In this document: positions 9,719 through 35,271 of the stretch, piece after piece | Layout: each line of letters begins with the position of its first letter | Position numbering within the stretch: the stretch's first letter is position 1 | Source: a virus | Lineage: Duplodnaviria; Heunggongvirae; Uroviricota; Caudoviricetes | DNA length: 64,000 nt | Reading direction: 5' to 3' (one strand) | IMG/VR virus record: IMGVR_UViG_3300045988_149737 | The notes under the pieces: model-generated | The model's input: the letters and a program-made list of their open reading frames with translations, nothing else | Databases searched by the model: none | Told to the model about the DNA's origin: nothing | Translations under genes and position numbers: made by a program

Positions 9719-12034
9719 ATGATAAGCATCGTAAAACGTAACGGCCAAACAGAGCCGTTATCCGAAGATAAATACAACCGCGTCGTAATGTATGGCGTAG
9801 AAGACATTCGTGGCGTAAGCGCATCCGCTGTAGCAATGGGAGCTGCGGCCAGCATTTTTGATGGGATTACCACCAGCCAGTTGCATGAGGCTTTGGTTAA
9901 ATCTGCCGCTGATTTGATCTCACCAGAAGCACCAAATTACTCACAGGTGGCTGCCCGCCTGAACATTTTTAAAATTCGCAAAGATGCCTTCGGTCGTTAC
10001 GACTATCCGAACTTCTACCAACACATTGTCAAGAACGTTAACAAGGGCGTTTATGACAAGGATTTGCTGACACATTATTCATTTGAAGAGATCGAAGAAC
10101 TCGGCAATTACATTAAGCCTAAACGTGACGATCTTTTTGGCTATGCAGCTACGGTGCAATTGCAAAGCAAATACCTCGTTCAAAACCGCGTTACTGGTGA
10201 GATTCATGAGGGGCCGCAACATATCTATATGCTGGTAGGCATGTGTCTGTTCCAGAATTGGGAAGACGACTGCGCTGGCAAAACACGTATGGAGATGGTC
10301 AAAGGTTTCTATGACGTTACAAGTACGTTCAAACTGTCTCTGCCCACACCAATCATGGCCGGCGTCCGTACTCCAACCCGTCAGTTCTCCAGTTGTGTGC
10401 TGATTGAGTCTGGCGATAGTCTGAAAGGGATTAGTGCAGCTTCAGCCGCAATTATCGACTACGTTTCACGTCGTGCTGGAATTGGTATTGGTTTTGGCCG
10501 TATCCGTGCGCTGGGCAGCGAGATCCGCAATGGTGAAGCCACACATACCGGAGTTACTCCATTCCTGAAGCATTTCCAGACGGCTGTTAAATCTTGTTCG
10601 CAAGGTGGTGTTCGTGGTGGCGCAGCAACAGCGTTTTACCCGATCTGGCATCTTGAAGTTGAAAGTCTGCTGGTGGTGAAAAATAACCGTGGTATTGATG
10701 AAAACCGCGTTCGCCATCTTGATTACGGCGTCATGAGTAACCGTCTGATGTACCGTCGACTCGTCAGAAGCGAGAACATCACTCTGTTCAGCCCGCATGA
10801 TGTGCCTGATATGTACGAAGCCTTCTTCACAGACCAGGATCTGTTTGAAAAGCTGTACCATGAATACGAAGCCGATGATTCAATTCGCAAGAAGTCAGTA
10901 CCTGCCATTGAGCTGTTCTCATCTCTGATGCAGGAACGAGCGTCCACGGGCCGAATTTATATTGCGAACGTCGATCATATTAACGAGCATGGCGCTTTCA
11001 TTCCTGCTCTTGCACCTGTTCGCCAGTCAAACCTGTGCATGGAGATCACTCTACCCACTCGTCCACTGGCATTTACCGACGACCCGAACGGTGAGATCGC
11101 GCTTTGCACTTTATCCGCTTTTAACCTCGGAGCCATCCGTTCACTGGAGTCTCTTAAAGAGGTGGCGTTCTATGCCGTTGCTGCACTGGATTCGTTACTG
11201 GATTATCAAGACTATCCGATGGAGGCAGCCGAAGTGCCAGCCAAAGCTCGCCGTAGCCTGGGAATCGGTGTAACCAACTTTGCTTATTACCTGGCAAAGA
11301 ATGGCGTTCGTTATTCTGATACCGCTGGCAATAAACTGGTGCATGAAACGTTCGAAGCTATCCAGTATTACCTTCTTGATGCCAGCTGCCGACTTGCTGA
11401 AGCAAAAGGTGAGTGTGACTGGTTTGAGCAGACCAAGTACGCAATTGGTCAGTTGCCGATCGACCATTATCGTTCTTCATTAGACGAAAGTGGCGAAACC
11501 AACTTTGAGTTAAAGATGCCGTGGGAAGAACTGCGTGAACGTATTGCAAAATACGGTCTTCGCAACTCCACACTGACGGCACAAATGCCATGCGAGACTT
11601 CCAGCCAGATCACTAATTCCACCAACGGCATCGAGCCGCCTCGTGGCCCGGTGTCGGTGAAATCTTCTAAGGACGGCATCGTTAAGATGGTCGTGCCTGA
11701 GTTTGAAAAACTGAAGGAACAGTATGAATACCTGTGGGATATGCCGGACAACCGCGGCTATCTGACAAAGGTGGCGATCATCCAGAAGTTCTTTGACCAG
11801 GCTATTTCAGCCAATACCAACTATGACCCTTCTCGCTTTGAAGGCGATAAAGTCCCAATGATGACGCTACTGTCAGATTTGCTTCTCGCCTACAAGATGG
11901 GAGTTAAAACGCTTTACTACCACAACACCAGAGATGGTGCAGGAAAGCGTGATGACGACGAAGCGCAGAATCCACTTACGCAAGCTGTAGCCGTCGAGCC
12001 AGAAGATGAGTGCGACGGAGCCTGCAAAATCTGA
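9719..12034 (+). CDS. nrdA: Ribonucleoside-diphosphate reductase large subunit (class I)
   Basis: 771 aa; N-terminal ATP-cone-like region and long conserved stretches of class Ia alpha subunit; followed by an nrdB-like gene. Confidence 0.9.
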   Translation: MISIVKRNGQTEPLSEDKYNRVVMYGVEDIRGVSASAVAMGAAASIFDGITTSQLHEALVKSAADLISPEAPNYSQVAARLNIFKIRKDAFGRYDYPNFYQHIVKNVNKGVYDKDLLTHYSFEEIEELGNYIKPKRDDLFGYAATVQLQSKYLVQNRVTGEIHEGPQHIYMLVGMCLFQNWEDDCAGKTRMEMVKGFYDVTSTFKLSLPTPIMAGVRTPTRQFSSCVLIESGDSLKGISAASAAIIDYVSRRAGIGIGFGRIRALGSEIRNGEATHTGVTPFLKHFQTAVKSCSQGGVRGGAATAFYPIWHLEVESLLVVKNNRGIDENRVRHLDYGVMSNRLMYRRLVRSENITLFSPHDVPDMYEAFFTDQDLFEKLYHEYEADDSIRKKSVPAIELFSSLMQERASTGRIYIANVDHINEHGAFIPALAPVRQSNLCMEITLPTRPLAFTDDPNGEIALCTLSAFNLGAIRSLESLKEVAFYAVAALDSLLDYQDYPMEAAEVPAKARRSLGIGVTNFAYYLAKNGVRYSDTAGNKLVHETFEAIQYYLLDASCRLAEAKGECDWFEQTKYAIGQLPIDHYRSSLDESGETNFELKMPWEELRERIAKYGLRNSTLTAQMPCETSSQITNSTNGIEPPRGPVSVKSSKDGIVKMVVPEFEKLKEQYEYLWDMPDNRGYLTKVAIIQKFFDQAISANTNYDPSRFEGDKVPMMTLLSDLLLAYKMGVKTLYYHNTRDGAGKRDDDEAQNPLTQAVAVEPEDECDGACKI

Positions 12035-12134
12035 CATATGGTGGGGTATATCCCCACCTTATCTTTGATTTGTAAGCCTTGTTTAAACACATAAGATAAC
12101 AACTTGTTTAAACACATCAAAAAAGGAAAAACAC

Positions 12135-13277
12135 ATGTCATATTCAACGTTCCGTTTGGGTGCTAATGATGCAACCAAAGAGCCTATGTTCCTCGGACAA
12201 TCTGTCAACGTGGCACGTTACGATCAGCAAAAATACCGTGATTTTGAAAAGTTGATTGAACGTCAATTGTCTTTCTTCTGGCGGCCGGAAGAAGTTGATA
12301 TTTCGAGCGATCGTATCGACTTCAACACGAAGCTGCGAGACCACGAACGTCACATTTTTCTGAGCAATCTCCGTTATCAAACGTTACTCGATTCAGTTCA
12401 GGGACGTAGCCCAAATGCAACGCTGCTGCCGCTTATCTCTATTCCTGAACTGGAAACGTGGGTTGAAACATGGTCTTTCTCTGAGACTATCCATAGCCGC
12501 AGCTACACCCACATTATTCGTGGCATGGTGGACGATCCGAGCATTGTTTTTGACGGTATTGTTACGGATGAAGAAATCATCAACCGAGCGATCAGTATCT
12601 CTGCTGAATATGACAGGCTTTATGGGATGACCTGCGAGCGCCAGTCGTTAGGTGAGAAAGAGTTTGAACGTCTGTACGTAAATGAATATGGCTGGGAGCC
12701 ATACCCTTTGCATCGTCAGCTTTTCCGCACGTTGGTGTCCATTAATGCGCTTGAGGCGATCCGTTTCTATGTAAGTTTTGCATGTACGTTTGCCTTTGGC
12801 GAACGGAAGTTGCTTGAGGGTAACACCAAAATTATGCGCTTTATTGCCCGTGATGAAGCTCTGCATTGCGAAGGAACTGAACGCATGATCCGCTTCATGC
12901 GTACCGGTCGCGAAGGTTTATTGTGGAAAGAGATTGCTGCTGATGAAGAAAACGTCATTTACGACACCATGAAATCAGTCGCCGAACAAGAAATGAACTG
13001 GGCAGACTATCTCTTCAAAGACGGTTCGATGATTGGTTTAAACGCGGATATTCTGAAGACCTATGTAAAATACCGAACCAATCTGGCTATGAATCGTCTT
13101 GGCCTGAAGGCTTTATTTCCAGAAGTTACCACAGATCCGCTGGTCTGGATGAACAAGTGGTTGTTAACCGACACACTGCAAATTGCACCACAAGAGGCAG
13201 AGCAAAGCACATATCTGGTAGGTCAGATCGATTCTACCGTGGATAAGGCTTCTCTAAGCCAGTTTGCAGACCTGTAA
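12135..13277 (+). CDS. nrdB: Ribonucleoside-diphosphate reductase small subunit (class I)
   Basis: 380 aa, di-iron/tyrosyl radical family features; directly downstream of nrdA. Confidence 0.85.
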
Positions 13278-13354
13278 ACCGATACAAAGCATTATGTGGC
13301 CTGGCAACGCTGGGTCACAATGGATCACAAGAATTAAGAAGGAACAAAACTAGC

Positions 13355-14224
13355 ATGAACTTTACCAAACTGACTGACCACCTGAAACTTGCCACCGATC
13401 GACTCATTGGATTTAAGCCAGAACCATATGAGTTGCATGAAGGCCATGGTGTAGCCACTGAAAGTATTTACAAGATGGTCGATCAGTTTCATGAACTCTT
13501 CCAGCATCCGAGACGCGTTATGCCGACACCAGAGCTGCTTCGTCTCCGTGCAAGCCTGATTCATGAAGAAGCTGTAGTGGAAGGGATTCCAGCCGCAATG
13601 AATGGGGATATTGAGCAACTGCTGGATGCAATGGCCGACTTTTTATACGTTGGTGTTGGTACGATGGTCTCCATCAAAGGTGGTATTTCTACCGGCATGA
13701 CCTATTACACGCAGGAACAGAGCATTGATCGCTTTATGCAGACAATTTTTGTGCCCGGTAACACTGTTTTCGATGATATGGCAATGCCATTTCAGGAAGC
13801 TCGTGAGGCGTCATGTATGCTCGAAGAGCTGGCAGATAAACTTGAGAAGAAGGCTGTTAAGGATTCTGAGCTGATTCAGGAACTGCGCCGTGTAATGAAC
13901 AAAATCTATGTGGCGTGCATGATGACTTATCGACTGGCTGATTTCCTCGGTATCAATGTCGTCGAGCTGGTTGGCGAAATTCATCGGTCTAACATGACAA
14001 AATTATGGCCTGCTGATGTTGAGGAACGTCGCCAGGCTGTGGCCAACTGCAAATACGACTCTTCAGATCTGGGATTCCGCCATGCTGATGGCACCGATAA
14101 GATGATCGGTTTTCGAATTTCCGATGGAAAGATTCTGAAGTCTCCAACCTATAGTGATGTCGATTTATCCTCCTTTGTTGAGCAAGCTAAAGCCTCAGCA
14201 ATGTACGGAATGATCAAAAAATAA
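13355..14224 (+). CDS. hypothetical protein; possible all-alpha NTP pyrophosphohydrolase (MazG/dimeric-dUTPase-like)
   Basis: Real ORF in the nucleotide-metabolism cluster; EGHG...ELLRLRASLIHEEAVVEG and EQLLDAMADFLYV resemble MazG/HisE-type motifs (weak, by eye). Confidence 0.45.
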   Translation: MNFTKLTDHLKLATDRLIGFKPEPYELHEGHGVATESIYKMVDQFHELFQHPRRVMPTPELLRLRASLIHEEAVVEGIPAAMNGDIEQLLDAMADFLYVGVGTMVSIKGGISTGMTYYTQEQSIDRFMQTIFVPGNTVFDDMAMPFQEAREASCMLEELADKLEKKAVKDSELIQELRRVMNKIYVACMMTYRLADFLGINVVELVGEIHRSNMTKLWPADVEERRQAVANCKYDSSDLGFRHADGTDKMIGFRISDGKILKSPTYSDVDLSSFVEQAKASAMYGMIKK

Positions 14225-14394
14225 TTGTAGGTAGTTATCTATCTATGTATATTTAACATGCGTAATAAAACTCTGGAATGACTATTCGTTTTGGTGGCCT
14301 ATGGCCACCATTTTTTTATCTGTCTGGTCTTGTTCTCTCAATGAATGTAAACTCACATGATGAATAAGTAATTACTTATCTTTGTGAGGTTTTT

Positions 14395-15498
14395 GTGTCA
14401 CTACTTTTGAATCGAGAGCATACGAACGGTCAGGTAACAAACGCATCGTATGCAAAAGTTATTGAGACGGTGCTTAAAAGCGGCGTGCAGGCTGATGATC
14501 GCACAGGCACTGGTACTTTAAGCACCTGCTACGTTCCCTCTTATTACATGCTTACTGGTGGGACTGTGCCGCTTATTTCTGGAAAGGCGGTAAATCTTAA
14601 GCCACTGCTTGTCGAACTTGAGTGGTATCTGAAAGGCACGGGCAACATCCAATTTCTCAAGGATAACGGCGTTAAGATTTGGGATGCATGGGCCGATGAG
14701 AATGGCGATTTGGGGCCGGTTTACGGTAAGCAGTGGCGTCGATGGGAAGATACCCGCATCGTGAGCCATAGTGAATATCTGAGCAAGATCGCTACTTTCC
14801 GTGAACGCGGGTACAAAGTCGAGGGATACCTGGGTATCAGTGAAGATCGCGTAGTGCTGTCCCGTGAAATCGATCAGCTACAGCGTATTGTCGATACACT
14901 GCGCACGAACCCTACCGATCGTCGCATCATGCTTAACGCATGGAACGTAGGCGAGCTTGAGGATATGAAACTGCCACCTTGCCACTTTGTCTTCTCTTTG
15001 TGGAGTCGTGAGCTGGATTTTGAAACCCGTTTAACGATGGCAACTGACATTGGTCTTCAACACAGTCGCCTCGGTTACGAGTCTATCTACACCAAGATGC
15101 TATACGATCTGGAGGTGGACGGCAGTGTTACTGAAGCTGAACTGGATGAACTTGGAATCCCCAAACGCATCCTCAACTCCTGCCTCGTACAGCGTAGCGT
15201 AGACACTTTTGTTGGTATGCCATTCAATATTGCTGGCTATGGCATTCTCACTCATTTTCTCGCGAAGATTACGGGTCACATGGCCGGTGCATTTGTGCAT
15301 TTTGGCTTTGACGTGCATTTGTACAACAACCACATGGAAGGTGTGTGTGAGCTAATGAAACGACAGGCTCCAGAGCATTCAGATCCGGTCGTTATTTTCC
15401 CTCATGAATGGTCAGAGTTGGATGATTTCAAATGGGACGAGGTTTTAATTCTTGGCTATGACCCTCTATCGTGGATCAAGGTTCCAGTGGCGGTGTGA
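14395..15498 (+). CDS. thyA: Thymidylate synthase (ThyA family), atypically long, GTG start
   Basis: Motifs GPVYGKQWRRW, PPCHFVF (catalytic Cys), DTFVGMPFNIAGY; about 45-aa insertion after the catalytic Cys region. Confidence 0.8.
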   Translation: MSLLLNREHTNGQVTNASYAKVIETVLKSGVQADDRTGTGTLSTCYVPSYYMLTGGTVPLISGKAVNLKPLLVELEWYLKGTGNIQFLKDNGVKIWDAWADENGDLGPVYGKQWRRWEDTRIVSHSEYLSKIATFRERGYKVEGYLGISEDRVVLSREIDQLQRIVDTLRTNPTDRRIMLNAWNVGELEDMKLPPCHFVFSLWSRELDFETRLTMATDIGLQHSRLGYESIYTKMLYDLEVDGSVTEAELDELGIPKRILNSCLVQRSVDTFVGMPFNIAGYGILTHFLAKITGHMAGAFVHFGFDVHLYNNHMEGVCELMKRQAPEHSDPVVIFPHEWSELDDFKWDEVLILGYDPLSWIKVPVAV

Positions 15499-15499
15499 T

Positions 15500-15913
15500 A
15501 TGGCAAGAGGTATGTATGTCTTATGCGAAATTGAAGGTGTGCTGGCAAATGCCAGCCATCGTAAATCAGTATCTGACGCGGATGCAGGCCAGCTCATTGC
15601 CGGTGATGAACTCATTTTCCCCACTAGCCGTATGTTGCGTGGTTTTGCTCGCTCAGGGGCTGAAGTGGTGCTTATCAGTAGCCGCTCTGAAACTCTTGAA
15701 GCGCCCACTAAACGATGGCTGAAAGATTTTGGCGTTGATTACGACTGGCTTTATCTCGTACCGAATGGCACCAGTTATGAGAAGCATATTAAGCGCACAT
15801 TAGCGGAGCATAAAGGCGATCTGCTTATCGCTGCGCTGGTGCACGATCCTCGACTCCGTGCCGCTTTAGCCGACTCTCACCATCGACCGGTCATCTATGA
15901 GGTGAGCAAATGA
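15500..15913 (+). CDS. hypothetical protein, HAD-phosphatase-like with non-canonical motif I
   Basis: Start moved to the ATG just after the thyA stop; VLCEIEGVL resembles the HAD DxDGT/V motif with Asp replaced. Confidence 0.4.
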   Translation: MARGMYVLCEIEGVLANASHRKSVSDADAGQLIAGDELIFPTSRMLRGFARSGAEVVLISSRSETLEAPTKRWLKDFGVDYDWLYLVPNGTSYEKHIKRTLAEHKGDLLIAALVHDPRLRAALADSHHRPVIYEVSK

Positions 15914-16386
15914 AGATGATCGCTGCTGTTGGCCGTAACTATGAGATCGGCATAGCGAATGAACTCCCCTGGCGTTGTTCTACCGATCTGAAGCTATTTA
16001 AGAGACTCACCAAAAACGCCACTGTCGTTATGGGGCGTAAAACGATGGAAAGTCTCAAACGCCCTCTTCCAGAGCGTCATAACCTCGTTTTGACGCGCTC
16101 TCATGGCTTTGTACCAAATGGATTCTACCCTGCTGGTGTGGATGATGTGTTGCGATTACCAGAGCCTGTGTGGGTGATTGGCGGGGAACAAATTTACTCG
16201 CTATTCATGCCGCATGTTGAAGAGATTTGGCTCTCCCACATCGGCGTTGATGTACCAAACGCCGATGCATTCTTCCCGGCAAGCATGATGCGTAACTTAG
16301 GCTTTGTGCCTGTTGAAACAGCTTATACCCAACGAGCCAGCGAGGAAGAGCCTGGCTTTTCGCAGATCGTATACAGAAGGTCGTAA
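15910..16386 (+). CDS. folA: Dihydrofolate reductase
   Basis: MIAAVGRNYEIG...LPW...VVMGRKT...IGGEQIY, typical type I DHFR pattern. Confidence 0.85.
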   Translation: MKMIAAVGRNYEIGIANELPWRCSTDLKLFKRLTKNATVVMGRKTMESLKRPLPERHNLVLTRSHGFVPNGFYPAGVDDVLRLPEPVWVIGGEQIYSLFMPHVEEIWLSHIGVDVPNADAFFPASMMRNLGFVPVETAYTQRASEEEPGFSQIVYRRS

Positions 16387-24699: not shown

Positions 24700-26385
24700 A
24701 TGAATACAGCCCTTTCCATCATCGACGATGCCAACTCAAACACTGCTATCGACTATCGGCAGGAAATGAACGTCATCCACGAAATTGTGGCCGAGTGCGA
24801 GAAAGAGATCGCCTTCATGTATCAGGTACACGACTTCGTTTATGGCGACGAACGCCACAACATGATTAATCGCCTGCTGAGACTAAACCATCGACCAGAT
24901 GAAGATCGCTCGCGTTTAAATCGAGGTTGGTTGGATAAAGTCGATCTGGAATGGGTGAAACAGAATATTTGGGCCGAGTACTGGAGGAAGGTCACGGACA
25001 TGACTAACGTTTTGCTGATCATGCCAGCTTCCCGTCGAGATGAGTGGCGCGAGCAGTTTATAGAGGGCAAACAGGAAGTCATCAAAACTGACAGAACCGG
25101 CTACCAGATGAAGGTTAAAGAGTTCGTTGGTGTACCGGAGTTCAAAGCAGAAACGGTCATACCCACGATGCTTAATTTGCTGAATGACAGGCACAAATAT
25201 CTCTCTGAGCGCGTGTATGGCTTGTTTAAGGCGCTGAGTCCTGCGCACAAGACAAATAAGACAAACGGTTTCAGCGAACGTCTGATAATCGCTGACTGCA
25301 TTTCTGATTTCTGGCGGGACAGCGTTAGTGTGAACTATCGCAAAGAGGACTATATCGACGATCTGCGTGTCTTGCTTCATTTCTTCGCGCACAAAGAATT
25401 TATTACCATCAACCGCACTGCTGAGGTGCTATCAGCTGCGTATCGGGCAAACGACTGCCAGACCGGTGACTGGATGAACGTCGATGGAAATCTGATGCGC
25501 GTGAAGATGTTCAAGAACGGCAACGTTCACTTTGAAATACATCCTGACGTGGCCTGGAAGTTGAATGAGGTGCTGGCTTACAGTATGCCTGCTGCAATCC
25601 CCGCGCCATGTCGCACCGCGCCAAAAACACGGGCACCAAAGCAGTTCGGGTTAATCCAGAAGACGATCTCCGTGCCGGTTCGCACTGCGCTTCGTGACGG
25701 GCGATTGAGCAAAGACAAAGGCGTATGGTACTTCTCTGATTCAGCTCTCCAGAAGTCGCAGGTGGAAGAGCTTGAGCGCACACTGAGCTTCATTGGCGGC
25801 GTGCAGGAGAAAAAGCACTGGCAGTTCCCGTATGACATCGTCCATACGCTAAATACGATTGTGGCTACCGGTTTAATACCGGATACAAAATCACACCAGT
25901 TCTACCCTACCCCACGCTTGATTGCTGAGTACGTTGCCAGAGCCACTGAATTGAAGCCTGGTGAGAAGCTGCTGGAGCCTCAAGCCGGACGTGGGGATCT
26001 TCTGGCCTATATTAACGCCGATCTGGAAGATGTTACCTGCATAGAAATCGCACCTCTCTTCGCTGATATCCTGCGTGGAAAAGGGTATACGAACACGATT
26101 TGCTGCGACTTCATAAAGTGGTCTGAGGACAACGTAGGTTATCAGTTCGACAAAATCGTTATGAACCCGCCGTATTCGCTTGGTCGTCATAGAGAGCACA
26201 CGCTGGCTGCGCTGGGGCATCTGAAAGTCGGCGGGCGTCTTGTAGCAGTATTGCCGGGCACTGCGCCAATACTGGACTGGATGACGATGGATAATTACGT
26301 TTATGCCAGAGGGAAGTCGTTTACCAACGAGTTTGAAGACACAGGGATCACAGTCAGCGTATACGTTTTCAAACGCGTTAAATGA
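24700..26385 (+). CDS. Two-domain DNA methyltransferase: N-terminal domain of unknown function (about 400 aa) fused to a gamma-class N6-adenine/N4-cytosine methyltransferase domain
   Basis: C-terminal motifs FYPTP (motif X), LLEPQAGRGDLL (SAM-binding motif I), IVMNPPYS (motif IV). Confidence 0.7.
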   Translation: MNTALSIIDDANSNTAIDYRQEMNVIHEIVAECEKEIAFMYQVHDFVYGDERHNMINRLLRLNHRPDEDRSRLNRGWLDKVDLEWVKQNIWAEYWRKVTDMTNVLLIMPASRRDEWREQFIEGKQEVIKTDRTGYQMKVKEFVGVPEFKAETVIPTMLNLLNDRHKYLSERVYGLFKALSPAHKTNKTNGFSERLIIADCISDFWRDSVSVNYRKEDYIDDLRVLLHFFAHKEFITINRTAEVLSAAYRANDCQTGDWMNVDGNLMRVKMFKNGNVHFEIHPDVAWKLNEVLAYSMPAAIPAPCRTAPKTRAPKQFGLIQKTISVPVRTALRDGRLSKDKGVWYFSDSALQKSQVEELERTLSFIGGVQEKKHWQFPYDIVHTLNTIVATGLIPDTKSHQFYPTPRLIAEYVARATELKPGEKLLEPQAGRGDLLAYINADLEDVTCIEIAPLFADILRGKGYTNTICCDFIKWSEDNVGYQFDKIVMNPPYSLGRHREHTLAALGHLKVGGRLVAVLPGTAPILDWMTMDNYVYARGKSFTNEFEDTGITVSVYVFKRVK

Positions 26386-26446
26386 TAGGTAAATACTTAC
26401 CTAATTTGTGTAAGAATGTAGTTACTAAACGATAAGAGAAAAACAC

Positions 26447-27151
26447 ATGAACAACCTCCAGTTAGAGCATTTTAACGTCACAGGCCATTCTGATTTTCCT
26501 TTCAAGTTTACATTGAAAGGTTATGCAGAGGATGCGGTAGGCCAGATCATTATTGATAAAGGCATCGTTAAGTTTGAGGGGGATTTTGATGAATCCGCGA
26601 AAACATTCATAGACTTCGTTGCCAAACGTTGGAGCGAGCAATGGAAAAACCTGGAAAAGCGCGCCAATGAGTTTGATCGGTTCATGGATGCAATGGATAC
26701 AGCAAAAGAGGCTCTTGATGCCGGGACTCCGTTAGATCTGGAGTCACTTTTCAACGGCGAAGTGGCCTCTGCGATGTTTGCCACCATGTTCGCGGGTGAG
26801 TTCGTCCGCAGCGGTGCCAAAAACTACCTTGAGCTGGATTACAACGTCCCTGCAATTGGCGATTTCGTCGTTACCATCCAACGCAAAGAAGGTAAGACGC
26901 CAGGTGAACGCGTCGCAGAGCTTGAGGCCGTTGTGGATCAGCGTAACGGAGAGTGTGACCGTTTGATCAACGAGCTTCATGCACTTCGGGAAGAAAGAAT
27001 ATGCGCGGGTAGTAATACACGTAATGCAGCGGATATCTACTTCCAGTTAGTTGAGGAATGCCAGATTCCACCAGGTGGCTCTCTTGTCGATTACGTAAGA
27101 CATTTAATGGCGGAAGTTAGCTCCAGCCATAAAGATGGTGAGGTGCGCTGA
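26447..27151 (+). CDS. hypothetical protein (234 aa)
   Basis: ORF with conserved RBS context gagaaaaacacATG. Confidence 0.55.
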   Translation: MNNLQLEHFNVTGHSDFPFKFTLKGYAEDAVGQIIIDKGIVKFEGDFDESAKTFIDFVAKRWSEQWKNLEKRANEFDRFMDAMDTAKEALDAGTPLDLESLFNGEVASAMFATMFAGEFVRSGAKNYLELDYNVPAIGDFVVTIQRKEGKTPGERVAELEAVVDQRNGECDRLINELHALREERICAGSNTRNAADIYFQLVEECQIPPGGSLVDYVRHLMAEVSSSHKDGEVR

Positions 27152-27531
27152 TGTTTGGCATTGACGCACAGCGTATAGCCGCTTTTGCAAAAAGCCCTCT
27201 TGATAATCCCTTGTCTCGTAGTGAGCAAATGGAGTTGGCAAGGCTTTTTCTTCACATTCAAAAACAGGCAGACATTTTCAATAACATGCCTAATCAACCT
27301 ATTCTGGATGGTCACATCCAGATGGTCATTAACAGTCATGAGAAAGGCTGGGCTGCAATCGTCCCCAGCACAATTACATACAAGTTGGCGAAAGAGGTTC
27401 AAGAGTTTCGAAAAGCCAGTGTCGAATCTGAGTCTACCAAAGCCGCAATAAACACTCTTATTCGCATGGGATTCACATGGAACGGTGGAGCCTACTGGCA
27501 AGCACCTCACCCCATTTTATCCGGCAATTAG
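27151..27531 (+). CDS. hypothetical protein (126 aa)
   Basis: Translationally coupled ORF; terminator hairpin aaggccataagttgtggcctt downstream. Confidence 0.5.
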   Translation: MFGIDAQRIAAFAKSPLDNPLSRSEQMELARLFLHIQKQADIFNNMPNQPILDGHIQMVINSHEKGWAAIVPSTITYKLAKEVQEFRKASVESESTKAAINTLIRMGFTWNGGAYWQAPHPILSGN

Positions 27532-27650
27532 ACGCTACAAATCCTTCTGCGTGAATAAATAAAGGCCATAAGTTGTGGCCTTAAATAAATTGTTTTCTGC
27601 CTTTTCTTATTTGTGAAAATAACCACAACTAGAAAACAACGGAGTTAAGA

Positions 27651-28292
27651 ATGTCTAGTATTTCCGAAGCACATATGTTCGCCGCTGGCGCTCATGGTGG
27701 CGTTGGTCAGAAAAGAAAATATACCGGCGAAAACTACATCAACCACCCGGTTGCTGTCCGAGAGATTGTTGCATTGCATGACGGAACCGTGGAGATGCAA
27801 ATCGCGGCGCTTCTGCATGATGTGGTCGAAGACACCCATGTAACCATAGAGATGGTTCGTGATCACTTCGGTGAGCGCGTAGCTGAAATGGTTCAGGCTC
27901 TGACCAACATTGCAAGGCCAGAAGACGGCAATCGAATACAGCGTTTCATCATCAATGTCCGGGAGCTGGAGCAAAATCTCGACATGCAGACGCGCATGAT
28001 CAAGCTGGCTGACCTGCTCGACAATACCTCTTCTATCGTGAGTCGCGATCCTGAGTTTTCAGCTATCTACCTTGCAGAGAAAGAGCTGATGCTGGACGTA
28101 CTTTTTAACGGGAAGGAGATTGGTGCCAACGCTGATGTTGTCGAGTACATGGAGAGGATAGGTATAGAACACCCGTTGTTATTAAGCGCAAAGGCGAAAG
28201 TCACTGAAGGTATTGCGCTTCTGAAACCGGTACACATCAAACGTTATGAAAAACACAAATCGCTGATCTGGAGCGCGTGGGAGGCTGCATGA
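27651..28292 (+). CDS. RelA/SpoT-homologue HD-domain hydrolase (small alarmone hydrolase, SAH/Mesh1-like)
   Basis: Hallmark RSH hydrolase motifs YINHPVAV and AALLHDVVEDT; 213 aa, no synthetase domain. Confidence 0.75.
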   Translation: MSSISEAHMFAAGAHGGVGQKRKYTGENYINHPVAVREIVALHDGTVEMQIAALLHDVVEDTHVTIEMVRDHFGERVAEMVQALTNIARPEDGNRIQRFIINVRELEQNLDMQTRMIKLADLLDNTSSIVSRDPEFSAIYLAEKELMLDVLFNGKEIGANADVVEYMERIGIEHPLLLSAKAKVTEGIALLKPVHIKRYEKHKSLIWSAWEAA

Positions 28293-28831
28293 AGGTCGAA
28301 AAAATAGATGTTCTTTCCTTTGTGCTGACGGATCTGGAACGCCTCGATCCGGTTCGAGTGATGATTGAAAACTACGAACCTGGTAAGGGAAGAATCACCA
28401 TCACCTGCTACGGAAAAGCGTGGACTGCGGCTTGGTTTGCTATGGGCGGTGATGATGTGCAGACGTTCATTAAGCGAGTTAGCAACGATTATCTAATCGA
28501 CAATTTCGACCCTCAACTGCTAAGCACGGTCGACGATGACAACGATGCAAATCTGCTTTTCGTAAAGTCAGAAATCATAAAGTTACGAAGAGAGAGAGAA
28601 ATAGACGCCGTACTGGCTCGCGAAATGTGGGACGAGGCGGAAAACGCCGATGACGTAAAAGAAAGCTGCTGTTGTTTCGGCGTCGGTAACAAACTGCTGA
28701 ATCTCTTTGGTGATGATCCGTGGTATGCCGACTGGCCAACGGTACCAAACCCGAAATACCAGTATCTGGAACGCATTGTGAACGCGGTACGTGAAGGGCT
28801 GAAAGAGTTAGATAAGTTAGAGGCATCGTAA
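28277..28831 (+). CDS. hypothetical protein (184 aa)
   Basis: ORF overlapping the hydrolase stop. Confidence 0.5.
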   Translation: MGGCMKVEKIDVLSFVLTDLERLDPVRVMIENYEPGKGRITITCYGKAWTAAWFAMGGDDVQTFIKRVSNDYLIDNFDPQLLSTVDDDNDANLLFVKSEIIKLRREREIDAVLAREMWDEAENADDVKESCCCFGVGNKLLNLFGDDPWYADWPTVPNPKYQYLERIVNAVREGLKELDKLEAS

Positions 28832-29274
28832 TGAGAGAGAAAATCAAGAACCCGGTCGTCGTATTGTATAAACGGGAAACCAGCGATTCTTATGCGGTAT
28901 CCATCACTGATGGAAGCCAGAACATGCACGATGGTCTGCTAATGGCCTCCGTATCTCCTGATGATTCTGACTACCCTTTCGCCACTTTCGCTATGGTTGG
29001 TTACTACATGGCTGCCGAAATTGAGAAGTTGCGTGTTGAGCTGGAGACCGTTAAACAGCGGGAAAAGGATCTGTTTATGGAAAATGTTCGACTTAAGTCA
29101 GGTATAGCAGGTCTGATACACCTCGGTATTCGATATGCGGATGTCGAAGTCATGAAAATAGCTGGAGATGCCCAGCTTTCTACTCCCTGTACTGACAGCA
29201 TCATAAACAGTATTGCATCAGGCGTTTTCACCAAAGAGGGTCAGCATGATGAGAACAGTAGAAGTTCGCGCTGA
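28831..29274 (+). CDS. hypothetical protein (147 aa)
   Basis: ORF, coupled. Confidence 0.45.
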   Translation: MREKIKNPVVVLYKRETSDSYAVSITDGSQNMHDGLLMASVSPDDSDYPFATFAMVGYYMAAEIEKLRVELETVKQREKDLFMENVRLKSGIAGLIHLGIRYADVEVMKIAGDAQLSTPCTDSIINSIASGVFTKEGQHDENSRSSR

Positions 29275-29434
29275 AGATGTAATCCCAGGTGATGTGGTCA
29301 TAACATCTAAAGGCAAACGATGTGCGGTTAAATCTTTCTGGATGGAAGGTGACAAAGTGACTCTGTTCGGTACAGATGGTTCCGAAACGGATTATGACTA
29401 CGACGAATTGCTTGTTGTTGAGAGAGCTGCCTAA
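29246..29434 (+). CDS. hypothetical small protein (62 aa)
   Basis: Start chosen at internal ATG; overlaps previous ORF. Confidence 0.35.
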   Translation: MMRTVEVRAEDVIPGDVVITSKGKRCAVKSFWMEGDKVTLFGTDGSETDYDYDELLVVERAA

Positions 29435-30087
29435 TGACCACCGTTAACAATAAGAAATGCTACCCAAGCGAGAAATATCTTAATGAGCTGATCACCAACA
29501 TTGAGTTTGCTGCAAGGGCACCAGTTGAAGTCGTGAGAGCGATTGCAGCAGAGCTACAGAAGCACCGTAAGGCCTATGCCAATACAGCCGCATCTAAGGA
29601 TGGTTGGATAAGCTGTAGTGAGCGAATGCCTGTAATTGGCGAGCTAAATTGGAGAACTAGTTTTCCTTTACTGGTTACGTGTGAGATCGGCGTTATACCT
29701 GCTTATTACGGCTTTGTGAGCGTTAATGGTGATAGGCATTATGGCTTTATGGAGAGTCTTAAATACGGAGACGATAACGGCAACCATCCTCAAACTAATG
29801 AATATGGTCTGATTAGCAATGTCACACACTGGATGCCACTACCAGAACGCCGCAGGAGTCGAACAGTGAATAATGCAGAGTTATTTCAGAAAATATCGGC
29901 TCTCGCGACTGAATGCCACGCTATAGCATCTGAGCTTGATGTTGGCGATGAACGAACCGAGATGTTCGAAATATACAGTGTGCTGCGCAATCTCTGTCGG
30001 CGTGGCTACGCCACTCAAGTAGGGCGAATGACTAACCCACTACTCTCATCCTGTGATGAGGATGATTCGGATGAGGATGACGAATGA
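29434..30087 (+). CDS. hypothetical protein (217 aa) with acidic C-terminal tail
   Basis: ORF; C-terminus DEDDSDEDDE. Confidence 0.5.
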   Translation: MTTVNNKKCYPSEKYLNELITNIEFAARAPVEVVRAIAAELQKHRKAYANTAASKDGWISCSERMPVIGELNWRTSFPLLVTCEIGVIPAYYGFVSVNGDRHYGFMESLKYGDDNGNHPQTNEYGLISNVTHWMPLPERRRSRTVNNAELFQKISALATECHAIASELDVGDERTEMFEIYSVLRNLCRRGYATQVGRMTNPLLSSCDEDDSDEDDE

Positions 30088-30749
30088 TGCATAAATCAGT
30101 AGCCGGTGAGTTTCAGAAGGAAGTCGATAATACTACCGTTCTATTGGACGATATTTTAAGCATTCTCGCGCTTCTTGAGGCTGGCGATTGGTCAGAACAT
30201 TGCACTAAAACAGAGCTAGGCGGTCGGCTTGAAAGAGAGATTACACGACTTATTGGTGATGCGCAGGAAGCTACAGTCACTAGTTATGAGTTAATCGCTG
30301 AAGCCTGGCGTTTGATGGATGGACAAGATCCTAAAACCAGCGATTGGCATAGCAAGGCTTCGAAGTATTTAAATTCCGATAGGGTAGAAAAAGTTGATGA
30401 TGTGAAACCGAAGCCAGTAGACCACGGTTTCCGCGATAACTGCGAATGCTCTAGTTGCCAGACCACGGCCCGTATTTGTTCTGAATTGACAGATAAGTCC
30501 AGCCTAATCTACGAAGTTAATGTAGGCGGTAATACATGGGTCGAATGCACAAGAGCTGCATACGTAAGAGCAAAAGACAAGGGTGAATTAACCAGAGTTG
30601 TTACCAATCACCCAAATAATGAGCTTAAAGATCACCAGATTCGAGAACTGGTGAACGAGTTGAGAGATATTGCGGTTCAGTACCACGGAACGCAGCAATT
30701 GCGGGAGAAGATTGCCAGAGCAGTGAACAACTCAGTCCGTAAAAAATAA
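30084..30749 (+). CDS. hypothetical protein (221 aa)
   Basis: ORF, coupled; hairpin aggccccatgctcttgatggggcct after the stop. Confidence 0.5.
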   Translation: MMHKSVAGEFQKEVDNTTVLLDDILSILALLEAGDWSEHCTKTELGGRLEREITRLIGDAQEATVTSYELIAEAWRLMDGQDPKTSDWHSKASKYLNSDRVEKVDDVKPKPVDHGFRDNCECSSCQTTARICSELTDKSSLIYEVNVGGNTWVECTRAAYVRAKDKGELTRVVTNHPNNELKDHQIRELVNELRDIAVQYHGTQQLREKIARAVNNSVRKK

Positions 30750-31516
30750 GCAATAGTACGATAAAGAGGCCCCATGCTCTTGATGGGGCCTGTAGCAACT
30801 AGCGTTATGGACGCTGGTTTACGTACTCAATGATCGCTTTGATAATCGCGAACATCGGCGGCACGATTTTGAACAGTAAGTTAACCATAACAGGCCTCAC
30901 TTAGTTTTATCGCGCCTAGCTGCAAATACCTTTGGGCTTGCCTTTGCAGTTGCAATATCTGTAGTCGCCAGATACTTACGGCACGATTTCGAGTTAAGGT
31001 AAGGTTTTAGAGTCACCAAAAACCTGGACTTAAATCTTCTTTGAGAACAACGATGTTTAGTAAATGGTCATTATTACCTGGTATGACCACTCAACGCTTC
31101 TTGATGAATCCAGTACATTCGGTTAATCTTAATTCAGTCGCCAGATACTTATGGCTCAGGAACAGAGACGCAAACTCTGTTTCCTTTTAAAAAGCCCAGC
31201 CTAGTCAACTGGGCTTTTTAACGTCTGTTTTTTAACCCAACACACCCTCAATACTGCAACATCAGTGTCTTGCAACCTAAGATAGTGTCTGTAGGTTCTT
31301 CATGCAAGTGCATAACTCAGTGGATAACTCATGAAGGAAAAAGTAGCTTCCGCGCAATTTAGACCAGACAAGGTCTTCGCAAAAGTCAACGGAAAGAGAA
31401 AAATTTGTTAAAAATAACGTTTGTTGGAATTGTATATATTTATGCCTTTCAATAGTTAGCATCTTATTAACATCTTTTTTAAGAGATAGAGTTCAAAAAT
31501 ATATAGCTTCAACATA

Positions 31517-31536
31517 TACTGTATGTATATACAGTG
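31517..31536. promoter_or_regulatory. LexA (SOS) box
   Basis: tactgtatgtatatacagtg matches CTGT-N8-ACAG, 17 nt upstream of the umuD'-like ATG. Confidence 0.7.
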
Positions 31537-31552
31537 TTAAGAGGCGAGTATT

Positions 31553-31942
31553 ATGGGCTTCCCTTCTCCTGCGGCGGATTATGCTGAGAGCCGTATTTCT
31601 CTTGATCAGCAGATAATTAGACATCCTTCAGCGACCTACTTCATGAGGGCAGCTGATAGTCATCATCGTGAGGGAATATTACAGGGTGCATTGCTGGTGG
31701 TCGATTCCTCACTTACCCCGGTTGATGGTTCTCTGCTTGTATGCGCTCTGGATGGGGAATATCGCGTAAAAAGATACCGGAAGTATCCACGTCAGCATCT
31801 GGAGGATTTAAGAACCGGTAAGAAGGAAGCATTGCCAAAGGATGACGATGGATGCACGGGCAGCAATGCCGTGTTTGGTGTGATCACTCACATTATCAAC
31901 GACGCAAGAAGTGGCGAGTTTGATGATTGTCCCGTGATGTAG
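31553..31942 (+). CDS. umuD: UmuD'-like S24 peptidase-family protein lacking the N-terminal pro-segment
   Basis: Begins MGFPSPAADY, matching the UmuD region immediately after its Cys24-Gly25 autocleavage site; conserved Ser (AADSH) and Lys (RVKRYRK) at catalytic positions; in-frame stop 15 nt upstream excludes a longer N-terminus. Confidence 0.7.
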   Translation: MGFPSPAADYAESRISLDQQIIRHPSATYFMRAADSHHREGILQGALLVVDSSLTPVDGSLLVCALDGEYRVKRYRKYPRQHLEDLRTGKKEALPKDDDGCTGSNAVFGVITHIINDARSGEFDDCPVM

Positions 31943-31979: not shown

Positions 31980-33080
31980 TCACACTGCGCGGAATGCGAT
32001 TTCGCCAGGTATTACTTCACCTTGCCAATACATTTGGGCAGCAACGCGATCTGCGAGGTCACGATAAATAGCCGTAAATTCGCTATCTGGACGACTAATA
32101 ACGGTTGGTGTTCCGTTATCCAGATCTTCACGAAGTGAGATATGAAGTGGCATTTGGCCTAACAACAGCGTGTTGTATTTCTCGGCCAGTTTCTGTGCGC
32201 CACCAGTGCCAAAAATTGGCTCGTGATGACCGCAGTTACTGCAAATATGCACACTCATGTTTTCGACGATACCCAGTACCGGCACTTCGACTTTTTCGAA
32301 CATCACAATGCCTTTCTTCGCATCGATCAGCGCGATGTCTTGCGGCGTAGTTACCACAACCGCACCAGTTACAGGAATGTTCTGCGCCAGCGTCAACTGA
32401 ATATCACCAGTGCCCGGCGGCATATCGAGAACGAGATAGTCCAGATCAGGCCACAGTGTTTCTTGCAACATTTGCATCAACGCCTTGCTCGCCATAGGGC
32501 CACGCCACACCATCGCGTTGTCGTCAGTGACCAGATAACCAATTGAATTGGTTGCCAGGCCATGAGACATAATAGGTGCCATGTGAGTACCGTCTGGTGA
32601 GGTTGGACGTTGGTTTTCCGCGCCCAGCATGGTTGGAATTGATGGCCCGTAGATATCGGCATCAAGAATGCCAACTTTCGCACCTTCAGCGGCTAACGCC
32701 AGCGCAAGGTTTACCGCCGTGGAAGATTTACCTACCCCACCCTTGCCTGAGCTGACGGCGATAATGTTCTTAACGCCATTAATGCCTGGTTGGTTTTTAA
32801 CGCGCTTCAGCGTGGCAATGTTGTGAGACAGCTTCCAGTCGATAGCCTTTGCACCAGTGATACGGAGCAGATCACCACTACATTGCTCTTTCAGGTCTTC
32901 AAAAGGCTTATTCCACACGAAAGGCATGATTAGTTCGACATGCAGTGTGTCATCCATCAACGCAACATGGTGTAACGCTTTAAGCGTAGTCAGGTTGTGT
33001 TTCAGGGTTGGGTGCTGAAAATTAGCCAGCGTACCGGCTACCATTGCTCTCAGGGCATCCGGCGATTTGGACTCGCTCAT
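31980..33080 (-). CDS. apbC: Fe-S cluster carrier ATPase ApbC/Mrp
   Basis: Full-length match by eye to enterobacterial ApbC/Mrp (deviant Walker A SGKGGVGKS, CxxC motif ICSNCGH). Confidence 0.9.
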   Translation of the reverse strand: MSESKSPDALRAMVAGTLANFQHPTLKHNLTTLKALHHVALMDDTLHVELIMPFVWNKPFEDLKEQCSGDLLRITGAKAIDWKLSHNIATLKRVKNQPGINGVKNIIAVSSGKGGVGKSSTAVNLALALAAEGAKVGILDADIYGPSIPTMLGAENQRPTSPDGTHMAPIMSHGLATNSIGYLVTDDNAMVWRGPMASKALMQMLQETLWPDLDYLVLDMPPGTGDIQLTLAQNIPVTGAVVVTTPQDIALIDAKKGIVMFEKVEVPVLGIVENMSVHICSNCGHHEPIFGTGGAQKLAEKYNTLLLGQMPLHISLREDLDNGTPTVISRPDSEFTAIYRDLADRVAAQMYWQGEVIPGEIAFRAV

Positions 33081-33237
33081 CCCGTCTCCTTTATTTTAAT
33101 TTGCGCAATTGTCGCCTTGTAGTGTACTCCAGCTACGACATTTAATCATTTATGAGAAATGCTGTTATCACATGGCAGACATAAGGCCATTTTGTTACTA
33201 TCAAGCCCCTTTTCACTACAAAGAAGTAATGCCTACT

Positions 33238-35271
33238 ATGACCCAAGTCGCGAAGAAAATTCTGGTGACGTGCGCGCTGCCGTACGCTAACGGCTCAATC
33301 CACCTCGGCCATATGCTGGAGCACATCCAGGCTGATGTCTGGGTTCGTTACCAGCGAATGCGCGGCCACGAGGTTAATTTCATCTGTGCCGACGATGCCC
33401 ACGGTACGCCGATCATGCTGAAAGCACAGCAGCTTGGTATCACACCGGAGCAGATGATTGGCGAAATGAGTCAGGAACACCAGACTGATTTCGCAGGCTT
33501 TAACATCAGCTATGACAACTATCACTCGACGCACAGCGAAGAGAACCGTCAGTTGTCTGAGCTTATCTATACTCGCCTGAAAGAGAACGGTTTTATTAAA
33601 AACCGCACTATCTCTCAGTTGTACGACCCGGAAAAAGGCATGTTCCTGCCGGATCGTTTTGTAAAAGGCACCTGCCCGAAATGTAAAGCGCCAGATCAAT
33701 ACGGCGATAACTGTGAAGTCTGCGGCGCAACATATAGCCCGACTGAATTGATCGAGCCGAAATCGGTGGTTTCTGGCGCTACCCCGGTAATGCGTGATTC
33801 CGAACACTTCTTCTTTGATCTGCCTTCTTTCAGCGAAATGCTGCAGGCATGGACCCGCAGCGGCGCGTTGCAGGAGCAGGTGGCGAACAAAATGCAGGAA
33901 TGGTTTGAATCCGGCCTGCAACAGTGGGATATCTCCCGCGATGCGCCTTACTTCGGTTTTGAAATTCCGAACGCGCCGGGCAAATATTTCTACGTCTGGC
34001 TGGACGCGCCGATTGGCTACATGGGTTCCTTCAAGAATCTGTGCGACAAGCGCGGCGATACCACCAGCTTCGATGAATACTGGAAGAAAGACTCCACCGC
34101 CGAGCTGTACCACTTCATCGGTAAAGATATTGTTTACTTCCACAGCCTGTTCTGGCCTGCCATGCTGGAAGGCAGCAACTTCCGCAAGCCGACCAACCTG
34201 TTTGTTCATGGCTATGTGACGGTGAACGGCGCGAAGATGTCCAAGTCTCGCGGCACGTTCATTAAAGCCAGCACCTGGCTGAATCATTTTGACGCTGATA
34301 GCTTGCGCTACTACTACACCGCGAAACTCTCTTCGCGCATCGATGATATCGACCTGAACCTGGAAGATTTCGTTCAGCGCGTGAATGCCGATATCGTCAA
34401 CAAAGTGGTTAACCTGGCCTCCCGTAATGCAGGCTTTATCAACAAGCGTTTTGACGGCGTGCTGGCAAGCGAACTGGCTGACCCTGAACTGTACAAAACC
34501 TTTACCGATGCCGCTGAAGTGATTGGCGAAGCATGGGAAAGCCGCGAATTTGGTAAAGCTATCCGTGAAATCATGGCATTGGCTGACCTGGCTAACCGCT
34601 ATGTCGATGAACAGGCTCCGTGGGTGGTGGCGAAGCAGGAAGGTCGCGATGCCGATCTGCAAGCGATTTGCTCTATGGGCATTAACCTGTTCCGCGTGCT
34701 GATGACGTACCTGAAACCGGTACTGCCGAAACTGACTGAACGTGCGGAAGCGTTCCTGAATACGGAACTGACCTGGGATGGTATCCAGCAACCGCTGCTG
34801 GCACATAAAGTGAATCCGTTCAAAGCACTGTATAACCGCATCGACATGAAGCAGGTTGAAGCACTGGTGGAAGCATCCAAAGAAGAAGTGAAAGCCACCG
34901 CCGCGCCAGTTACTGGCCCGCTGGCTGATGATCCGATTCAGGAAACCATCACCTTTGACGACTTCGCCAAAGTTGACCTGCGTGTGGCACTGATTGAAAA
35001 CGCGGAGTTTGTTGAAGGCTCTGACAAACTGCTGCGTCTGACACTGGATCTCGGTGGTGAAAAGCGTAATGTCTTCTCCGGCATCCGTTCTGCTTATCCA
35101 GACCCACAGGCACTGATTGGTCGTCACACCATTATGGTGGCTAACCTGGCTCCGCGTAAAATGCGCTTCGGTATCTCCGAAGGCATGGTGATGGCTGCTG
35201 GCCCTGGCGGAAAAGACATCTTCCTGTTAAGCCCGGATGCCGGTGCTAAACCAGGCCACCAAGTTAAGTAA
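33238..35271 (+). CDS. metG: Methionine--tRNA ligase
   Basis: 677 aa from [26 protein letters not shown] (HIGH motif), KMSKS motif present, zinc-binding CPKC...CEVC; start moved from upstream ATG to canonical MTQ. Confidence 0.9.

Follow-up and report, generated by a model that had tools for sequence, protein, structure and literature searches.

A PaSpo-like small alarmone hydrolase in an accessory cassette of an SSU5-like Escherichia coli phage-plasmid

Introduction

The small alarmone hydrolase (SAH) of Salmonella phage SSU5 has been classed as a stand-alone, phage-encoded member of the PaSpo subfamily (Jimmy et al. 2020, PNAS 117:10500; PMC7229694). Upon co-expression, SSU5 PaSpo neutralised all five of the five validated toxSASs, namely CapRel, PhRel2, FaRel2, PhRel and FaRel (PMC7229694, Table 1), and the bypass of alarmone-based defence by phage SAHs was explicitly proposed by the same authors (PMC7229694). 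In later papers PaSpo(SSU5) has become a routine detoxifier when FaRel2, PhRel2 and CapRelSJ46 are expressed: CapRelSJ46 was detoxified with it (PMC9712102), and merely leaky PaSpo expression neutralised FaRel2, with the authors stating that the tRNA modification was removed (PMC11245113). [quoted passage not shown] Direct in vitro de-pyrophosphorylation of tRNA has been shown for MESH1 and ATfaRel, and the evidence that we retrieved for PaSpo is neutralisation of toxicity in vivo. In the literature searched we found neither a deletion-phage phenotype nor a native-context role.

ATfaRel and kindred SAHs are single-domain RSH hydrolases as well and likewise neutralise every toxSAS tested; their SAH subfamily is not that of the gene described here. 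ATfaRel is a type IV antitoxin whose gene adjoins that of its toxin FaRel, and for the present SAH no synthetase partner was found among its neighbours or in the ~102 kb inspected of the closest plasmid. It is plausible that phages carry alarmone hydrolases to counter the stringent response and abortive infection by RSH-based systems, CapRel among other toxSASs.

Here, we describe an SAH gene within a window of 64,000 nucleotides of Caudoviricetes DNA, the whole stretch that was analysed. An initial annotation of this DNA had read the gene as a phage-encoded RSH-type alarmone hydrolase that might counter alarmone-synthetase toxins or override the stringent response, and had considered the next four or five ORFs as possible parts of the same module. 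This interpretation is partly supported by our analysis: its core is right but already published, and the extended module found no support.

Results and discussion

Gene, domains and catalytic residues of the hydrolase

The gene, its ribosome-binding signal and the layout of its product are as follows.

27641..27644, + strand: GGAG Shine-Dalgarno, 6 nt before the ATG of the SAH gene, read from the sequence
27651..28292, + strand: SAH gene (213 aa, ATG start), orthologue of Salmonella phage SSU5 gp099 'PaSpo'
SAH protein: HD_4 at residues ~8-135, a ~17-aa clade-specific insertion and a C-terminal helical extension at residues ~150-213

The reading frame and the two motifs named in the initial annotation (HPVAV and AALLHDVVEDT) are present exactly as claimed; in the translation, NHPVAV occupies residues 31-36 and AALLHDVVEDT residues 52-62. 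Pfam HD_4 (PF13328) matched residues 8-135 with 67.8 bits (E=1.2e-18), the gathering score being 27.2 bits, and the generic HD domain of Pfam was matched as well, as was phrog_990, 'metal-dependent phosphohydrolase' (E=1.4e-54). The NCBIfam family spoT_relA (TIGR00691) matched over model positions 1-123 of 687 only (E=1.2e-24), and the hydrolase domain alone is therefore present. In agreement with the earlier claim of a stand-alone protein, the Pfam search returned HD_4/HD matches only, with no synthetase, TGS or ACT domain in the 213 residues, and residues 150-213 are helical without a further domain in the AlphaFold2 model. This signal is far above chance, and, as judged from its sequence, the protein is a hydrolase-only, single-domain RSH protein.

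Residues R22, H32, H56, D57, E60, D61, D121 and N125 are invariant in an alignment of 45 SAH homologues with identities down to ~42%. The phmmer alignment with human MESH1 (3NR1) places them on R24, H35, H61-D62, E65-D66, D122 and N126. Hence the H...HD...D metal-binding tetrad (H32, H56, D57 and D121, corresponding to MESH1 H35, H61, D62 and D122) is intact, and the loss of metal-binding His/Asp positions that would have spoken against the assignment was not seen. The catalytic pair E60-D61, the arginine R22 and the asparagine N125 are likewise present (MESH1 E65-D66, R24 and N126). In MESH1 and RelSeq, the counterparts of these residues bind Mn2+ or take part in catalysis at the RSH hydrolase site, the ED pair being E81-D82 of RelSeq. 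The MESH1 numbering (R24/H35/H61-D62/E65-D66/D122/N126) is the established one (Sun et al. 2010). Compared with homologues of ~170 aa, the SSU5-like clade carries the ~17-residue insertion and the C-terminal helical extension.

Predicted structure

The AlphaFold2 model of the SAH, built on the alignment, is all-helical with a pLDDT of 96.9 and a pTM of 0.92. Foldseek comparison with the PDB gave 39 matches at E<=0.001, all 39 of them to MESH1, small alarmone/(p)ppApp hydrolases, Rel/SpoT hydrolase domains or Lmo0812, an uncharacterised HD protein. The hydrolases among them include P. aeruginosa SAH, C. glutamicum RelH, L. levettii SAH and the (p)ppApp hydrolase of B. caccae, and the Foldseek probability was 1.00 for MESH1, P. 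aeruginosa SAH, C. glutamicum RelH, SpoT and Rel. Comparison of the predicted structure with Mesh1/SpoT, recommended in the initial annotation, thus returned MESH1, SAHs and Rel/SpoT as best matches. Many phage HD or '(p)ppGpp hydrolase' models were also matched in the BFVD search.

The best matches among solved structures are human and Drosophila MESH1 (3NR1, 3NQW and 5VXA), with Foldseek E ~3e-6 and TM to target of 0.75-0.79. Both proteins have the H..HD..ED..D..N active-site pattern in common; they differ in sequence (~26-28% identity) and in the ~17-aa insertion and C-terminal helical extension, which are found in the phage protein. Long RSHs (SpoT 7QPR, Rel 6S2T/1VJ7/5XNX) possess a homologous HD domain and are the top PDB matches by sequence (E 1e-13 to 1e-10). 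In contrast to them, the SAH is devoid of synthetase, TGS and ACT domains and hence of ribosome- or CTD-mediated regulation. The profile match, the metal-binding tetrad, the ED pair and the fold are all those of the RSH superfamily hydrolase domain.

Orthology to SSU5 PaSpo

The RefSeq protein WP_024219422.1, annotated as 'HD domain-containing protein', is 100% identical to the SAH. SSU5_099 (YP_006906731.1), which carries the annotations 'putative guanosine polyphosphate pyrophosphohydrolase/synthetase' or 'metal-dependent phosphohydrolase', shares 87% amino acid identity with it (186/213, no gaps), and all catalytic residues are identical. Both proteins are 213 aa long and are encoded on SSU5-like phage-plasmids, downstream of a DUF4942 methyltransferase and overlapping a PF26211 gene at the 3' end. 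They are distinguished by 27 substitutions, mostly in the C-terminal helices, and by the host, Salmonella for SSU5 and E. coli here.

Given this identity to a protein classed as PaSpo by Jimmy et al., the SAH would belong to the PaSpo subfamily, and we infer that this allele has the same activity as SSU5 PaSpo. Domain, motifs, fold and orthology all agree with the earlier reading of an RSH-type alarmone hydrolase on a phage. Its proposed action against alarmone-synthetase toxins is borne out for the 87%-identical SSU5 orthologue by co-expression (PMC7229694) and would extend to the present allele; rescue of toxSAS toxicity, which had been suggested as an assay, has already been carried out in the literature for that orthologue with five of five toxSASs. 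The finding is therefore already known, since the orthologous phage SAH has been tested by experiment and is in wide use. The locus adds no new kind of protein to SSU5 PaSpo, the best-used phage SAH, of which it encodes the E. coli orthologue, and its modest added value is comparative: the gene travels in a two-gene accessory cassette that only a minority of the SSU5-like phage-plasmids of E. coli possess.

The phage-plasmid and the distribution of the hydrolase

A 4-kb stretch around the SAH gene is 97-99% identical to circular E. coli plasmids of ~103-115 kb, the best match being pEND_Eco 14033-3 (NZ_CP126951.1), and also matches the SSU5-like phages Cyrano, CMS-2020a, PhiR41_1 and Salmonella phage SSU5. 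The closest plasmid combines RepB and ParB with phage genes for terminase, portal, capsid and tail; the window is therefore part of an SSU5-like E. coli phage-plasmid of ~108 kb and not of a chromosomal prophage.

A search of 5,426 complete E. coli genomes located the SAH in 41 (36 full-length copies), always on plasmids of ~103-115 kb and never on a chromosome. The terminase/portal backbone is present in 237 complete E. coli genomes, and the SAH is borne by ~15-17% of E. coli SSU5-like plasmids. The remaining ~83-85% are without it, which shows that the gene is dispensable; by its distribution pattern it is an accessory, moron-like gene. Divergent Klebsiella elements encode a 52%-identical SAH directly upstream of a DUF4942 methyltransferase.

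Decayed or chimeric copies of the SAH were observed in other Enterobacteriaceae elements. One homologue (P0009) has HD changed to HG; in another (P0010), the N-terminus of a P-loop ATPase is fused at the EDT motif in place of SAH residues 1-59. The third (P0012) joins an N-terminus like that of the window ORF 26447-27151 to SAH residues ~77-213; it is without the HD motif and is nevertheless annotated as 'guanosine polyphosphate pyrophosphohydrolase'. These three copies suggest that recombination and loss of function are frequent at the SAH locus.

Mechanism and natural role

The best explanation of the locus, to which we assign a probability of about 0.88, is that the gene encodes a Mn2+-dependent 3'-pyrophosphohydrolase, a PaSpo-subfamily SAH in a two-gene accessory cassette, which would act against toxSASs and blunt (p)ppGpp accumulation. 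[quoted passage not shown] The phage-plasmid and its host cell would in this way be made insensitive to toxSAS toxins and defence systems of the CapRel, FaRel, FaRel2, PhRel and PhRel2 types, and accumulation of host (p)ppGpp would be blunted, lowering stringent-response signalling. The identity of the enzyme is well supported. Its natural role in infection or plasmid carriage would presumably be anti-toxSAS or anti-stringent action, and possible targets comprise host toxSASs, a T6SS (p)ppApp toxin and the (p)ppGpp made by RelA/SpoT. A tRNA scan, run in search of a link to tRNA-directed toxSAS chemistry, found no tRNA genes in the window.

The emphasis may alternatively lie on the last of these targets. 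If the (p)ppGpp made by RelA/SpoT were hydrolysed and the host stringent response thereby overridden, transcription, translation and the supply of nucleotides would be sustained during lytic growth, or maintenance of the plasmid state would be tuned, instead of toxSAS defence being countered. The chemistry is the same as in the best explanation, with which it is compatible, and we consider it possible, though with some reserve, that this is the main natural role. The SAH domain is homologous to the SpoT/Rel hydrolase, and alarmone accumulation on phage infection is discussed by Jimmy et al. (PMC7229694). Furthermore, the element is rich in nucleotide-supply genes (nrdA, nrdB, thyA, dfrA51), which (p)ppGpp would restrain and which lie in a cluster at 9719-16386:

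9719-12034, + strand: nrdA, class Ia
12135-13277, + strand: nrdB
13355-14224, + strand: 289-aa protein, phosphoribosyl-ATP pyrophosphohydrolase in RefSeq, no NCBIfam match
14395-15498, + strand: thymidylate synthase (thyA)
15910-16386, + strand: DfrA51-type trimethoprim-resistant dihydrofolate reductase (dfrA51), 338 bits against a cut-off of 322

Absence of the SAH from most E. coli SSU5-like plasmids and from Cyrano nevertheless indicates that it is not needed for basic replication. With dfrA51, the phage-plasmid bears a dfr gene of the resistance class.

The two-gene cassette and the PF26211 neighbour

The unit in which the SAH is inherited was delimited by comparison with Escherichia phage Cyrano.

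27626..28830, + strand: two-gene accessory cassette (Shine-Dalgarno, SAH gene and PF26211 gene), an indel relative to Cyrano
28289..28831, + strand: neighbour gene, 180 aa, PF26211 'phiTE_072 family' (precomputed domain), corresponding to the C-terminal part of phrog_3451

By blastn of window positions 27000-31000, homology to Cyrano stops at 27625 and resumes at ~28831 (weak) or 29025 (strong), with 44 nt only between the two break points in Cyrano. Neither the SAH nor the PF26211 protein was found in that phage by tblastn. It follows from this indel that the SAH gene and the gene at 28289-28831 form a two-gene cassette, which is real as a unit of inheritance, whereas a functional link between SAH and PF26211 protein is hypothetical. 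Most E. coli SSU5-like plasmids are, like Cyrano, without this cassette.

One may ask whether the pair is a two-gene system in which the second protein targets, regulates or extends the hydrolase. The two genes are gained or lost jointly relative to Cyrano, and their 4-nt overlap (ATGA) is kept in E. coli plasmids, in Salmonella phage SSU5 and in Klebsiella phage pJN2-26. The PF26211 gene, however, occurs in 142 complete E. coli genomes, including 92 chromosomal places that are all without SAH, and also in the lambdoid phage EC.W1-9 and in phiTE/CR3-type myoviruses with no adjoining HD gene; conversely, the divergent Klebsiella SAH has no PF26211 gene, and toxSASs are neutralised by SSU5 PaSpo alone (PMC7229694). 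Such a system is consequently unlikely. We regard as equally doubtful a broader form of the idea, a mobile two-gene counter-defence cassette whose second protein has its own or a cooperating role, e.g., as an inhibitor of a toxSAS sensor or of another abortive-infection system; were it true, the presence of the pair in ~15% of E. coli SSU5-like phage-plasmids would reflect selection by hosts with toxSAS/CapRel-type immunity.

The AlphaFold2 model of the PF26211 protein reached a pLDDT of 85.9, and Foldseek found no PDB fold match for it at E<=0.001. Its top Foldseek matches, Hsp70 substrate-binding domains, had TM<0.2 and were dismissed as meaningless. A weak BFVD match to a 413-aa phiTE protein had raised the possibility that phiTE_072 lies beside an HD protein in phage phiTE; the two are not adjacent within 4 kb, and this lead was rejected.

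The family phrog_3451 (287 positions) is split at this locus: its positions 13-101 match the ORF 26447-27151 (+) and positions 101-282 match 28289-28831 (+). This indicates domain shuffling among the Ea22/Eaa-like phage proteins that flank the SAH insertion.

Substrates other than alarmones

The proximity of the fold to MESH1 raises the question of whether the physiological substrate is an alarmone at all. MESH1 structures with NADPH and PAPS, which have been reported as MESH1 substrates, are among the best fold matches of the SAH, and SAH promiscuity is documented (PMC9765508). The phenotype shown for the orthologue is, in contrast, neutralisation of RSH synthetase toxins (PMC7229694), and we found no evidence for other substrates; a non-alarmone substrate is quite improbable.

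Downstream ORFs

The initial annotation had extended the module over the four or five ORFs that follow the hydrolase. Its first downstream start, GTG at 28277, is to be corrected, most likely to ATG at 28289 (MKVEK...), as in the identical plasmid gene in RefSeq and in the SSU5 homologue. The stop/start overlaps on which the module had been based are real (ATGA 28289-28292, TAATG 28829-28833, TAATG 29432-29436 and ATGA 30084-30087), and a small ORF at 29249-29434 overlaps the 3' end of ORF 28831-29274. An equally tight overlap is found at the upstream gene junction 26447-27151 / 27151-27531, and tight packing alone therefore does not indicate a module.

That the SAH and the five ORFs to 30749 constitute one dedicated functional module or operon is very improbable, even though all six share one strand, their stop codons overlap the next start codons, and a GC-rich hairpin (30767-30791) follows the last of them. 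The ORFs of 28831-30749 match Ea22/Eaa/DUF551-type lambdoid families, which are mosaic genes, and occupy 1,183 prophage places on E. coli chromosomes, from which the SAH is always missing. SSU5 and pJN2-26 do not have these ORFs after their SAH, SSU5 differing from the present locus in carrying other genes (LprI-family and others) after the PF26211 gene, and none of the ORFs occurs within 5 kb of the 52%-identical SAH of the Klebsiella relatives, which is directly followed by the methyltransferase gene. Cyrano, on the other hand, keeps the downstream ORFs and yet is without SAH. Neither co-occurrence nor gene order is conserved across 27651-30749; only 28289-28831 stays by the SAH, and in some lineages only. 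From sequence comparison, a six-gene module at 27651-30749 is not supported.

NCBIfam and Pfam searches of the five downstream and two upstream ORFs gave DUF551 (on ORF 29434-30087) and a sub-threshold DrmE_N only. A promoter scan of 26300-31600 returned fewer promoter-like sites than shuffled sequences did and no convincing promoter for the SAH cassette.

Two GC-rich hairpins, the sole ones in 26300-31600, flank the six-ORF block and are terminator-like on the minus strand only. The first (27562-27582) is located in the 119-bp gap 5' of the SAH gene and is common to Cyrano, hence outside the cassette; the second (30767-30791) lies 3' of ORF 30084-30749.

Absence of a partner synthetase

Pfam detected no RelA_SpoT synthetase domain in the neighbours of the SAH, and PADLOC, applied to the SAH and eight neighbours, identified no defence system, its methyltransferase models matching the DUF4942 protein only. 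The annotation of the closest, 99%-similar plasmid, of which ~102 of 108.5 kb were inspected, lists no alarmone synthetase there, and the SAH therefore appears to be an orphan hydrolase and not the antitoxin of an element-borne toxSAS. Although some SAHs do act as type IV antitoxins (ATfaRel, PbcSpo subfamily; PMC7229694), the same role here, as an immunity protein against an alarmone-synthetase toxin of the same element in the manner of C. marina ATfaRel, is the least credible reading of all, with no toxic SAS found adjacent to the gene or on the part of the element covered and the SSU5 SAH itself described as stand-alone by Jimmy et al. (PMC7229694).

Further genes of the phage-plasmid

A 561-aa DUF4942 / N6-adenine methyltransferase-like protein is encoded at 24700-26385 (+) and matches phrog_6263 as well as the mad2 and type II MTase models of PADLOC. 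Its gene lies no more than ~1.3 kb from the SAH in E. coli, in SSU5 and in the divergent Klebsiella lineage, where the order is inverted. This proximity may reflect no more than synteny within an anti-restriction/accessory region.

A HumD-family translesion polymerase subunit, UmuD'-like and of already-processed length, is encoded at 31553-31942 (+; NCBIfam, 219.8 bits). A promoter-like site for this gene was noted at 31492-31520, and no umuC-like gene adjoins it in the annotated plasmid stretch.

Full-length, host-type genes for the Fe-S carrier ApbC (apbC, 31980-33080, - strand, 756 bits) and for methionyl-tRNA ligase (metG, 33109-35271, + strand, 1019 bits) follow. They had been considered as the chromosomal junction of an integrated prophage, which was rejected because both genes are present in the circular plasmid and in phage Cyrano. 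Since the closest E. coli plasmid and Cyrano have both kept apbC and metG, these genes are cargo of the phage-plasmid. The listed ORF of metG begins at a TTG start ~46 codons upstream of the profile match.
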